A stretch of DNA of 64,000 nucleotides from Rhodococcus sovatensis (GCF_037327425.1 NZ_CP147846.1:2604963-2668962); one strand, 5' to 3'; positions 32,630 to 36,914 are shown, numbered from the stretch's first letter. Numbers and translations: made by a program. The notes: generated by a model not told the origin, from the letters alone.

Positions 32630-33685
<1,056 letters not shown>

Positions 33686-33833
33686 TCACAAGTGTGCCGA
33701 GCGAGCATCAGCTAGGGCCCGATTTCGCAAAAACTAGCGGAGCGGCCGATATTCCGCTCAGCCCAAGTTACACGAGTGCGATTCTCGTGAGTACATGACA
33801 CGCCAAACCTGACTCCCAAAACCGTTGTCGCAC

Positions 33834-33867
33834 AAAAAAAGTGGCGGCGGACAATGTCCACCGCCAC
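33834..33867 (-). terminator. Intrinsic terminator downstream of the small ORF
   Basis: The minus strand reads GTGGCGGTGGACATTGTCCGCCGCCAC followed by TTTTTTT. Confidence 0.75.
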
Positions 33868-33940
33868 TTCCCACGCACCCCCACAGTGACTCATGGAGCC
33901 CCAAACAGAGCGTGCGCTGTGATCCGTGAGTAAACGCAGA

Positions 33941-34066
33941 TCACCTTCCCTTACCGCGCCGAATCGTCTCGGTCTGAGTAGTCCGCGGCGACTTCCTTGC
34001 AGCCGACGGCGGCAAGAACCGACCCGTGATCGAACTTCGAACGACCTTTGTGATCTTCTTTGTCAT
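33941..34066 (-). CDS. Small basic protein (41 aa), candidate independent gene between nrdE and nrdF
   Basis: Not in the ORF track (shorter than 60 aa). Near-perfect SD GAAGGAGGTGAAGTC-ATG. Product MTKKITKVVRSSITGRFLPPSAARKSPRTTQTETIRRGKGR. Upstream promoter-like TTGATG-N17-TATACG; the terminator lies 75 nt downstream. Confidence 0.5.
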   Translation of the reverse strand: MTKKITKVVRSSITGRFLPPSAARKSPRTTQTETIRRGKGR

Positions 34067-34179
34067 GACTTCACCTCCTTCGGGTTCTCGAAACCCCTCG
34101 GAGCCTCACGCACATGGCAAAGAGCACTCGTATAAGCTTGGTATCCCGACATCAACTGGGACCTCGCTTTGCGGGGTAT

Positions 34180-34213
34180 GAAGAGCCGATCCGTTACAGC
34201 GGATCGGCTCTTC
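34180..34213 (-). terminator. Stem-loop directly after the nrdE stop (terminator or stabiliser, no U-tract)
   Basis: Perfect 14-bp stem GAAGAGCCGATCCG / CGGATCGGCTCTTC with a 6-nt loop. Confidence 0.4.
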
Positions 34214-34249
34214 GCGTTCCCGGACGACTGTTCGCCAGGAAAATCTTGC

Positions 34250-36412
34250 TTACAGCATGCACGAAACGCAACCCTCCACCTCGGTGCCTTCGAGTGCCAT
34301 CTGCCGCAACCGGATGTAGTAAAGCGTCTTGATGCCCTTGCGCCACGCGTAGATCTGCGCCTTGTTGATATCGCGCGTCGAGGCCGTGTCCTTGAAGAAC
34401 AGCGTCAAAGAAAGGCCCTGGTCGACGTGTTGCGTCGCAGCGGCGTAGGTATCGATGATCTTTTCGTACCCGATCTCGTAGGCATCCTGGTAGTAGTCCA
34501 GGTTGTCGTTGTCGAGGTACGGCGCCGGGTAGTAGACGCGACCGATCTTGCCTTCCTTGCGGATCTCGATCTTCGACGCGACAGGGTGGATCGACGACGT
34601 CGAGTTGTTGATGTACGAGATCGAACCGGTCGGCGGAACGGCCTGCAGATTCTGGTTGTAGATGCCGTACTTCTGCACCGATTCCTTCAGCGCGACCCAG
34701 TCGGCCTGCGTGGGGATGTGCACATCGGCATCCTGGAACAACGAAGCAACGCGCGCAGTGGACGGTTCCCACACCTGGTCCGTGTACTTGTCGAAGAACT
34801 CACCCGACGCGTACTTGGACTCCGGGAACCCCTTGAAGTAGCTTGCCCGGTCCTTTGCGAGCAGGTTGGATGCCTGCAGCGCATGGAACAGGACGGTGTA
34901 GAAGTAGATGTTGGTGAAGTCGATTCCCTCGACGCTGCCGTAATGGATGCGCTCGCGAGCAAGGTAGCCATGCAGGTTCATCTGACCGAGGCCGATGGCA
35001 TGAGAGTCGTTGTTGCCCTGCTCGATCGACGGCACCGAGTAGATGTGTGTCTGATCCGAGACTGCAGTCAACCCACGGATCGCGACGGCGATGGTCTTGC
35101 CGAAGTCGGGCGAATCCATCGTCTTGGCGATGTTGAGTGAACCCAGGTTGCAGGAGATGTCCTTGCCGACATGACTGTAGGAGAGGTCGTCGTTGAACTC
35201 CGACGGCGTCGAGACCTGAAGAATCTCCGAGCACAGATTCGAGTGAGTGATCTTGCCCTTCACCGGGTTTGCCCGGTTCACCGTGTCTTCGAACATGATG
35301 TACGGGTAGCCGGACTCGAACTGCAACTCGGCCAGAGTCTGGAAGAACTCACGTGCCTTGATCTTCGTCTTGCGAATCCGCTTGTCGTCGACCATCTCGT
35401 AGTACTTCTCCGAGACATTGATGTCGGCGAATGGCACGCCGTAGATCCGTTCGACGTCGTAGGGCGAGAAGAGATACATCTCTTCGTTCTTCTTGGCCAG
35501 TTCGAACGTGATGTCCGGGATGACGATTCCGAGAGAGAGCGTCTTGATACGGATCTTCTCATCGGCGTTCTCGCGCTTGGTGTCGAGGAACTTGTAGACG
35601 TCGGGGTGGTGAGCATGGAGGTAGACCGCGCCTGCTCCCTGACGAGCACCGAGCTGGTTGGCGTACGAGAACGAATCCTCGAGCAGCTTCATGATCGGAA
35701 TGACACCCGAGGACTGGTTCTCGATCCGTTTGATCGGAGCTCCCGCTTCGCGAATGTTGCTGAGCAACAGCGCAACACCGCCACCGCGCTTGGACAGCTG
35801 CAGGGCAGAGTTGATGGAACGACCGATGGACTCCATGTTGTCCTCGATACGCAACAGGAAGCAGGATACGGGCTCGCCGCGCTGCTTCTTGCCGGAGTTG
35901 AGGAACGTCGGAGTGGCCGGCTGGAATCGACCGGCGATGATCTCGTCGACCAGATCAGTCGCGAGCGCCTCGTCCCCGGCTGCGAGCGTCAGCGCGACCA
36001 TGCAGACACGATCCTCGAACCGCTCGAGGTATCGCTTGCCGTCGAACGTCTTGAGCGTGTACGAGGTGTAGTACTTGAACGCACCGAGAAACGTCGGGAA
36101 GCGGAACTTCTTTGAATAGGCGTGATTGATCAAGAACTTCACGAATTCACGCGAGTACTGGTCCAGAACCTCTGGCTCGTAGTAGTTCTCCTCTACGAGG
36201 TAATCGAGTTTCTCGTCCAGATCGTGGAAGAACACCGTGTTCTGGTTGACATGCTGAAGGAAGTACTGGTTGGCCGCCTCGCGGTCCTTCTCGAACTGAA
36301 TCTCGCCGTTGGGGCCGTACAGATTCAGCATCGCGTTCAACGCGTGGTAGTCCAGGTCACCATCCGCTCGAACGGCATTGACAGGTGCTACCTCGGTGAT
36401 GGTGGGTGCCAC
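34250..36412 (-). CDS. nrdE: Class Ib ribonucleotide reductase alpha subunit
   Basis: Catalytic NLCSEI, radical C-terminal GCVSCML. GTG start at 36412 chosen (RBS GGAGCG); the ORF-track N-terminal extension is unlikely. Confidence 0.95.
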
Positions 36413-36449
36413 GGCGATCGCTCCAGTTCCTTGTTTCGCGCTTGAAAAT

Positions 36450-36914
36450 CTAGTGTGTGTGCGCTGCTCGCCGGGATTCCCGTTCCCAGAAGTCCTCGAG
36501 TCCTTCGCGGACTCGGTCGACGTCTTCGGGGGTTCCCATGAGTTCGAATCTGTAGAGATACGGAACCGCGCACTTCTGTGAAATGACATCGCCCGCAAAG
36601 CAGAACGAATCACCGAAGTTGGTATTGCCTGCTGCGATGACTGCTCTGATCAGGGACCTGTTGTGCTTCTGGTTGAGGAATTTGATCACCTGCTTGGGGA
36701 CGTAATTGGTGTCACGTCCAGCAAAGGTGGTTCCCCCGCCATAGGTCGGAACGATCAGCACGTATGGCCGATCGACCAGAAAGTTCTCTGGGTTGCGGAG
36801 TGGAATGCGGCTTGCCTTCAGGCCGAGCTTGACGACGAACCGATGTGTGTTCTCGGACGCACTCGAGAAGTAGACCAGCGAGTGCGTCTGCTGCGGAACG
36901 AGAGCGGAAGTCAC
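36450..36914 (-). CDS. nrdI: Class Ib RNR flavodoxin-like protein NrdI
   Basis: [15 protein letters not shown], an NrdI-family N-terminus. Confidence 0.9.

Follow-up and report, generated by a model that had tools for sequence, protein, structure and literature searches.

The 64,000-nucleotide stretch of Rhodococcus sovatensis DNA analysed here (NZ_CP147846.1:2604963-2668962; hereafter the window) carries a small gene in the spacer between nrdE and nrdF, the genes for the large and small subunits of the class Ib ribonucleotide reductase (RNR). This ATG-initiated open reading frame (ORF) of 41 codons, found in the ORF list at 33941-34066 on the minus strand, is a genuine, selected, stand-alone gene with a strong Shine-Dalgarno (SD) sequence and a terminator. 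Its product, MTKKITKVVRSSITGRFLPPSAARKSPRTTQTETIRRGKGR, belongs to a family of conserved hypothetical small proteins of mobile elements, which is already present in the databases, unrecognised; the window gene represents a chromosomal form of it, with one unit and a leader specific to the locus. Overall, we consider it probable that this is a genuine small gene of a mobile-element family, residing as accessory cargo at the nrd locus. An earlier note, made from the sequence alone, had placed a 41-codon ORF between nrdE and nrdF, and this was borne out, with both flanking genes identified by Pfam. The note had also described an independent gene with a promoter, SD sequence and terminator of its own; the coding gene, its SD sequence and its terminator are real, but a promoter of its own is unsupported.

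The reading frame is maintained in related genomes. Among the nrdE-nrdF spacers retrieved from relatives of the window, three others are filled by homologous small ORFs of 35-39 amino acids (aa). They belong to Rhodococcus sp. H36-A4 (locus L005; 39 aa, 85% identical to the window peptide), R. hoagii (L016; MAKTVKVVRSAKTGQFLPKSAAKKSPSTTVTETVRRGKK, with a GTG start) and the Rhodococcus assembly GCA_013277835.1 (L018; MAKRVRSAKTGRFLPASAAKKSPNTTVTETVKRRK). Between the window and the H36-A4 ORF, 3, 4 and 13 sites differ at the first, second and third codon positions, respectively, giving 12 synonymous codons and 5 codons with conservative replacements. The nonsynonymous (dN) and synonymous (dS) divergences are 0.078 and 0.71, with a dN/dS ratio of ~0.11, and both of the remaining frames contain stops. 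This pattern indicates that the frame is under purifying selection. Because the frame is kept in related nrdE-nrdF spacers, where the earlier note had looked to its loss as refutation, the small ORF is, on this comparative evidence, a protein-coding gene. The R. hoagii and L018 orthologues had been missed by the narrow family alignment A2, the patterns of which demanded 'RSS'. A collection of ~15 billion predicted proteins contains the R. hoagii peptide, unnamed, and none of the exact peptides of the window, L005 and L018. Proteins under 50 aa are routinely missed, and the window peptide is one that is uncatalogued, yet clearly under selection.

An antisense ORF on the plus strand (33926-34135) was also considered, and was rejected, as it takes the substitutions at its first codon positions and encodes a poorly conserved product. 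The G+C content at third codon positions (GC3) of the small ORF is 0.60-0.67 at three loci, as compared to 0.82-0.88 for nrdE and nrdF; the values of nrdH and nrdI are lower too. The low GC3 hints at a foreign origin, to which so short an ORF lends little weight.

The window peptide is very basic, with a computed pI of 12.0, 7 Arg and 5 Lys residues, and consists of one RSxxTGRF...A...P.TT..E unit between Lys/Arg tails. The basic character and the five Lys residues agree with the earlier note, which had counted 8 Arg residues instead of 7 and had overlooked the single acidic residue in stating that there were none. This residue, E33, corresponds to a conserved position of the family.

The expression signals surrounding the ORF are distinct. 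The SD sequence AAGGAGGTGA (34071-34080, minus strand) has its GGAGG separated from the ATG by 7 nt, and it is the only perfect copy of this 10-mer in the 64-kb window, in accordance with the earlier note's view of it as the best SD match there. In the SD region, AGGAGGTGA is invariant across all four syntenic loci. Downstream, fold and conservation identify an intrinsic terminator at 33834-33867 (minus strand), GTGGCGGTGGAC-ATT-GTCCGCCGCCAC followed by seven T residues. Its GC-rich 12-bp core stem and 3-nt loop occupy 33841-33867 and the T-run 33834-33840, and it starts 73 nt after the stop codon of the small ORF. The terminator of the earlier note is thus real, including its T-run. Folding of the 121-nt 3' region yields -60 kcal/mol (z = -5.8). 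L005 retains the terminator with one change of a G.U pair to A-U, and the 73 nt preceding the stem are scrambled relative to the window; in L018 the position is taken by another strong hairpin. The element therefore combines a GC-rich hairpin, an adjoining T-run and retention in orthologues. It escaped a simple terminator scan, probably since its stem can be extended into the T-run.

At the 5' boundary of the module, 36 nt 3' of the nrdE stop codon, lies the hairpin GAAGAGCCGATCCGCTGTAACGGATCGGCTCTTC (34180-34213, minus strand). The earlier note had described a stem-loop at the nrdE stop, and compensatory changes across species now corroborate it: RNAalifold predicts 13 pairs for four species (columns 61-94), several of which have both sides changed with the pairing retained. 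This hairpin is missing from the 'empty' spacers of 40-85 bp. It could possibly terminate nrdHIE, though it lacks a T-run.

At the protein level, the window peptide has many relatives. A phmmer search of 1.84 billion representative proteins gave 31 matches at E <= 1e-3 (best 2.8e-9), and in view of this number of matches the small ORF is far more than a chance frame. Most of the 31 proteins are 64-82 aa long and are composed of two ~30-residue units, while a few have one unit. The unit consensus is xxVxRSAxTGRFVxxxxAxRxPxTTxxE (alignment A1), with R10 and G15 invariant and with conservation of at least 90% at F17 (Phe/Tyr), A23 and P27. A search with the unit profile recovers at least 1,407 protein clusters at E <= 1e-3; all of the source-given names among them are 'hypothetical protein', and they contain no Pfam domain. 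The window peptide matches the unit significantly and bears its invariant Arg and Gly as well as its near-invariant Phe/Tyr, Ala and Pro. It also has the architecture of the family, with one or two units and short Lys/Arg-rich tails in a total of 33-82 aa. P0009, P0025 and the viral members likewise have a single unit, and the two-unit members are aligned in A4.

The family ranges over Actinomycetota, Pseudomonadota, Deinococcus and Candidatus Saccharimonadia. The relatives closest to the window peptide, at 72-73% identity, come from two Candidatus Saccharimonadia metagenome-assembled genomes (MAGs) and a metagenome contig of 37% GC. Since relatives this similar reside in such DNA, the conservation of the family is one of protein. 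Overall, the protein-level relatives are 46-73% identical, lie in DNA of 37-61% GC and are each encoded by a stand-alone gene; at both Saccharimonadia loci, the family gene is alone, with a GGAG SD sequence and a terminator.

The searches for a known family were negative. Pfam yielded no match for the window peptide or for ten family members, and NCBIfam, PHROGs, PADLOC and, by sequence, the PDB gave nothing convincing for the family. PADLOC-DB 2.0 had no match for the window peptide; one family member matched PDC-S38 of this database at E = 0.004, with no passing stretch. No ribosomal-protein model matched the peptide, and the only sequence match to a ribosomal chain in the PDB had E = 0.61 over 12 residues. 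A match of 'RSTETGQFL' to designed beta-trefoils was discarded as a 9-residue hairpin repeated three times, and not homology. Literature searches for the family motif found nothing, and those for a small protein linked to nrdE, nrdF or Rhodococcus found nothing relevant. A word-indexed protein search with the peptide alone also found nothing, which we attribute to the limit of the method. The tblastn searches of phages and plasmids with one-unit peptides gave no or marginal matches, short queries having low power, while two-unit queries succeeded. With at least 1,400 clusters, the family thus stands without a curated model, a structure or a literature match.

Some members carry labels that deserve comment. 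The ~70-aa two-unit proteins WP_074508526.1, WP_256536478.1 and WP_082764185.1 (L070 3501-3713, L074 2992-3198 and L076 2992-3198) are named 'ABC transporter ATP-binding protein' by NCBI. Given their size of ~70 aa and the lack of an ABC domain, this label is a clear misannotation, and a definition of the family would mend it. In NCBIfam, three other two-unit members (P0002, P0017 and P0022) align weakly (E 0.09-0.5) with the C-terminal 35-40 residues of NF040621, a Dietzia-specific HadA model, which hints that the unit may be fused to HadA in Dietzia.

The family is carried by mobile elements. One-unit proteins of ~33-50 aa are encoded on 47 IMG/VR viral contigs of 35-69% GC, many of which appear, from the style of their numeric ids, to be prophages excised from isolate genomes. 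Their neighbours are mixed, and include XRE/HTH proteins, HTH-peptidase fusions, antirepressor-like proteins, a transglycosylase and spanin-like proteins. A two-unit query retrieved 49 plasmids, 26 of them mobilizable and 9 conjugative, among which are pMAB23 of M. abscessus and the 23-kb plasmid of M. marinum M; the further hosts are Corynebacterium, Dietzia, Arthrobacter, Clavibacter, Agrobacterium, Paracoccus and roseobacters. One-unit forms are mostly found on phage or prophage contigs, and two-unit forms mostly on plasmids.

Several plasmid neighbourhoods recur. In Agrobacterium vitis and Rhizobium daejeonense, a WYL regulator gene is followed by a two-unit family gene, a TIR protein gene and a ~87-aa gene. 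In this module (L077 1850-4208 and L083 1859-4190), the family gene is unannotated, and a 3'-5' exonuclease gene is located in the same 6 kb, downstream of the operon in Rhizobium daejeonense and upstream of WYL in Agrobacterium vitis. The arrangement has the look of a TIR-containing module that is as yet uncharacterised. On Phaeobacter, Sulfitobacter and Yoonia plasmids, a divergent HTH gene and an ImmA/IrrE peptidase gene adjoin the family gene. DUF3892 directly adjoins it on the conjugative Arthrobacter plasmid pJ353-116 (L073 3280-3561), on Paracoccus p6 (L079 2676-2936) and in the metagenome locus L010 (4112-4495), and is the most repeatable single neighbour of the family across phyla. 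A large DNA methyltransferase gene or restriction-modification (R-M) cluster lies just 5' of some plasmid family genes, a sigma-like HTH gene is upstream in some plasmid loci, and H-NS or Lsr2, Shedu, TIR and RelE/ParE genes are near some plasmid members. These recurring neighbourhoods are suggestive with regard to the role of the family. Given its repeated placement beside WYL, TIR, HTH plus ImmA/IrrE, DUF3892 and methyltransferase genes, the family is a candidate in the establishment or defence biology of plasmids and phages.

Two further observations concern individual carriers. On Micrococcus pLMV7 and Dietzia pDK313-98, unannotated two-unit genes are followed within a few bases by a conserved gene of 86-87 aa (L001 3201-3464 and L002 3195-3455), which has no Pfam or PADLOC match and is possibly a partner gene in that plasmid lineage. 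The closest Saccharimonadia relatives (L003 3811-4213 and L006 3286-3691) lie directly 3' of a tRNA with a ~46-nt insertion in its variable region, which was called by Rfam and missed by ARAGORN. One copy of a 17-nt direct repeat is in the tRNA insertion and the other is just past the terminator of the small gene. The spacing is 322 nt in both genomes and the repeat sequence differs between them; the repeat could represent an att-like site or RNA pairing.

The presence of the small gene at the nrd locus is patchy. A module of ~380 bp, comprising the hairpin, a 114-nt leader, the SD sequence, the ORF and the terminator, occupies the nrdE-nrdF spacer in some Nocardiaceae. Scored at this spacer, the small gene is present in 4 and absent from 6 of the 10 nrdF loci adjacent to nrdE, counting the window and L005; at an eleventh locus, in Nocardia otitidiscaviarum, nrdF does not adjoin nrdE. 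Among those lacking it are the three nearest relatives that were examined, which have 95-99% NrdF identity to the window and spacers of 40-85 bp. These are a metagenome contig bearing the sp. P1Y NrdF (L011; 99%, 48 bp), R. kyotonense (L012; 98%, 40 bp) and R. yunnanense (L014; 95%, 85 bp). Prescottella agglutinans (L019; 92%) has a spacer of about 50 bp, likewise lacking the small gene. In R. fascians (NrdF 98% identical), the spacer contains a 364-aa AbiEi_4-like gene (L013 358-1452), and in R. qingshengii (93%), it contains Band_7 and 70-aa genes on the opposite strand (L015 188-1330). Since the contents differ so among relatives, from nothing to the small gene, the AbiEi_4-like gene or the Band_7 pair, the spacer (window 33653-34249) behaves as a hotspot, a variable and insertion-prone site in Rhodococcus-group species, with a patchily distributed small-gene module. 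The module could be ancestral and repeatedly lost, or could have spread by recombination through the highly conserved flanking genes. A recent insertion, as inferred from the 40-50-bp spacers of the closest relatives, was dropped as a model because more distant species carry the module.

With the spacers of relatives either empty (40-85 bp) or holding other cargo, the small gene most likely represents accessory cargo of an insertion-prone site rather than a component of RNR. It does not consistently accompany nrdE and nrdF across related genomes, and no similarity to a known RNR-associated family was found in Pfam (E <= 1) or NCBIfam (E <= 10). A link to the RNR system is unsupported, given closest relatives that lack the module and family members elsewhere that reside on plasmids and prophages without nrd genes.

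The sequence upstream of the small ORF is itself conserved. The 114-nt leader, extending from ACCCCGC to the start codon (34064-34177, minus strand; alignments A5 and A7), is strongly conserved in the four syntenic loci, in which the block GCYTATAYGAGT and the SD sequence are invariant. For the four leaders, RNAalifold predicts 26 pairs, of which 3 carry compensatory substitutions; all four retain a helix between ACCC/CUCC and the SD sequence. In single-sequence folds, CUCC pairs with GGAG, so that the SD sequence and the start codon are masked (z = -2.5 and -2.0). A covariance model of the leader (R1) was run on 559 kb that included every family locus from plasmids and viruses; it matched the four nrd-spacer loci only, and the idea that the leader travels with the family on plasmids and phages was rejected on this ground. 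No Rfam 15 family matched; the best scores were 11-18 bits against thresholds of 40-162, with E >= 0.79, and represented generic hairpins.

The earlier note had read this region as a promoter, TTGATG-N17-TATACG, which did not hold up. The two hexamers, at 34150-34155 and 34129-34134, are 15 nt apart, and both lie inside the leader. TATACG lacks the final T (T6), and a consensus scan found no sigma-70-like site in 33500-34400. In R. hoagii and L018, TTGATG is replaced by unrelated sequence, and conserved complementary arms (UCCC...GGGA) flank the stretch. The combination of 16-18-nt spacing, A2 and T6 in the -10 element and conservation in orthologues that marks a sigma-70 promoter is therefore lacking. 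The conserved upstream sequence seems to behave more like a structured leader than a promoter. A non-canonical promoter could reside within the leader, and the small gene is possibly transcribed by read-through from nrdHIE. That its translation may be gated by the conserved SD-pairing leader is a candidate mechanism to which we would give a little less than an even chance. One of the cargoes of the nrdE-nrdF spacer has a conserved leader that may gate translation.

The AlphaFold2 model of a two-unit member, built from 120 sequences, has a pLDDT of 78 and a pTM of 0.56, and each of its units is composed of a strand, a turn, a short strand, a short helix and a strand. In the model of the window peptide (pLDDT 81), residues 4-11 and 30-37 form strands and residues 20-25 a helix, and the basic C-terminal tail is of low confidence. 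The predicted unit begins with a long strand, turns tightly at the invariant Gly and continues through a short strand and a short helix to a second long strand. Fold searches found no neighbour and no structural similarity to a PDB chain, including the SpoVT/AbrB swapped hairpin, ribbon-helix-helix (RHH) proteins and SH3-like chromatin proteins; the best BFVD match was another family member, a 44-aa siphovirus protein.

From the tandem-unit architecture of the relatives, we infer that the one-unit proteins act as homodimers. In the mechanism that we propose, the one-unit protein would pair as a homodimer imitating the two-unit forms. With its basic tails and exposed strands, the homodimer would bind a polyanion, DNA or RNA being the most probable, and it would serve as one of the small accessory regulators or modulators that mobile elements bear in their stress, defence or establishment regions. 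This reading, a dimerising, nucleic-acid-binding accessory protein of mobile-element origin, is tentative, and we hold it to be somewhat less than evenly probable. H-NS/Lsr2-like 'stealth' or silencing proteins offer a comparison: they are likewise strongly basic and encoded in the accessory or establishment regions of mobile elements, and H-NS adjoins the family gene on Paracoccus p6, with an Lsr2 gene nearby on Micrococcus pLMV7. The likeness is one of composition, however, since the family proteins are far smaller (35-80 aa), are built of repeats and have no homology or fold match to them.

A more specific explanation, overlapping with that of an accessory cargo gene, is that the family is a component of conflict systems. 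It would be a small effector, adaptor or regulator with TIR, DUF3892 or R-M partners under WYL- or CapH/CapP-type control, and the Rhodococcus copy would be an orphan or a domesticated remnant. The order WYL, family gene, TIR and ~87-aa gene on the Agrobacterium vitis and Rhizobium daejeonense plasmids argues for it, as do the cargo position of the family gene divergent from HTH plus ImmA/IrrE in Phaeobacter, Sulfitobacter and Yoonia, the adjoining DUF3892 in three unrelated loci, the nearby Shedu, TIR and toxin-antitoxin genes and the AbiEi-like gene in the R. fascians nrdE-nrdF spacer. DUF3892 has been described as a CapH/CapP cargo linked to defence (bioRxiv 10.1101/2022.04.27.489752), and the DUF3892 (PF13031) proteins resemble the RSxxTGRF family in being small, uncharacterised and borne by plasmids and prophages. 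The roseobacter family genes, moreover, occupy the cargo position by HTH plus ImmA/IrrE, in the layout of that report. However, DUF3892 has no sequence relationship to the family in Pfam and is itself uncharacterised, and the Rhodococcus copies lack such neighbours, or indeed any flanking defence gene. PADLOC gave no real match, PDC-S38 at E = 0.004 having no passing stretch, the prophage contexts are mixed, and the associations are anecdotal and partly on common plasmid backbones. We therefore regard this explanation as unlikely. A more far-reaching reading is less likely again: the RSxxTGRF unit would be an unrecognised, minimal strand-helix-strand module of mobile elements, a homodimer or tandem of which binds nucleic acid or a defence effector, for instance a TIR protein, as a WYL- or CapH/CapP-controlled regulator or defence or anti-defence factor, and in some Nocardiaceae a copy would have been domesticated next to the dNTP-synthesis genes, with an SD-masking riboregulatory leader of its own.

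The remaining explanations fare worse. The pI of 12, the length of 41 aa, the best SD sequence of the window and the stand-alone layout would suit a ribosome-associated, very basic peptide of 30-40 aa, similar to the small ribosomal proteins of Actinomycetota of the bS22 and bL36 types, which also have 30-40 aa, a pI above 11 and a strong SD sequence. These are, however, core genes in all relatives, whereas the window gene is patchy among species with 92-99% identical NrdF, matches no ribosomal family of Pfam or NCBIfam and belongs to a family that is carried by plasmids and prophages and has a two-unit architecture unlike known ribosomal proteins; the window protein is unlikely to be a ribosomal protein, and any such ribosomal association is very improbable. 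We assign a similarly slight chance to a peptide or transcript that tunes nrdF expression or RNR activity, either through a terminator uncoupling nrdF from nrdHIE or as an accessory factor. The class Ib RNR loci of Mycobacteriales, as described in Corynebacterium, are split, with nrdHIE and nrdF as separate units and a spacer or gene between them. The window conforms to this, with the order nrdH-nrdI-nrdE, a spacer with a terminator and nrdF. The terminator is strong and must set transcription of nrdF apart from that of nrdHIE, the entire module and its leader lie at a constant position in four Nocardiaceae of at least two genera, and the leader model matches nowhere else in the 559 kb examined. 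On the other hand, the spacer content here varies among close relatives, which have nrdE and nrdF 40-85 bp apart or unrelated genes at that spot, and the family of the small gene is unrelated to RNR: its members elsewhere are not beside nrd genes, and it has no similarity to NrdH or NrdI. Least credible of all is a primarily RNA element, a small RNA (sRNA) or attenuator in which the ORF is incidental or a mere translated leader. The conserved, structured 5' region and the strong terminator do delimit a discrete unit of ~340 nt. The codon-level and cross-phylum protein conservation nevertheless largely refutes an RNA-only role, with changes concentrated at third positions and a peptide 46-73% identical across DNA of very different GC; the stretch from the stop to the terminator is unconserved, and no Rfam family matched. 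As the main function, the leader or dual-function sRNA entertained by the earlier note is disfavoured too, given a dN/dS of 0.11 and homologous proteins encoded in DNA of 35-69% GC.

Several points count against our own preferred interpretation of a mobile-element-family gene residing as cargo. The synteny in four Nocardiaceae and the locus-specific leader could mean a local role in nrd expression, and copies of the gene may exist elsewhere in the genomes in which it was scored as absent. The leader structure derives from four sequences, effectively two pairs, with only 3 compensatory pairs, and DNA bound by protein or serving as a promoter could account for the invariant stretches. Dimerisation and nucleic-acid binding are based solely on composition, repeat architecture and a monomer model. 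Clustering of the phage neighbourhoods revealed no fixed partner, the top neighbour cluster being found at no more than 8 of the 47 loci, and the neighbourhood associations are partly non-independent, as several of the plasmids have common backbones.

The flanking genes place the locus in context. The large-subunit gene nrdE lies at 34250-36613 (minus strand; Pfam RNR_N, Ribonuc_red_lgN and Ribonuc_red_lgC), and the small-subunit gene nrdF at 32630-33652 (minus strand; Pfam Ribonuc_red_sm, E = 4e-94). The window NrdF is 99% identical to that of Rhodococcus sp. P1Y, and this protein assigns the window to the Rhodococcus fascians group. Putative nrdI and nrdH ORFs, assigned by eye, are located upstream of nrdE. 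The longest nrdE ORF (787 aa, from a GTG at 36613) overlaps the putative nrdI (36450-36914) by 164 nt. Since nrdE homologues are called at ~720 aa and the RNR_N domain starts at residue 89, the true start of nrdE is probably ~65 codons downstream of this GTG. Before the nrdF start, a block of ~65 nt, CTCGCTCGGCACACTTGTGATCGACTGGTGGTAACACGAGCACTGAAACTCAAATGGGGATAGAT (window 33653-33720, minus strand), is almost identical in Rhodococcus sp. H36-A4, and the region from this block to the terminator has diverged between the two; the block is a candidate promoter or operator of nrdF.

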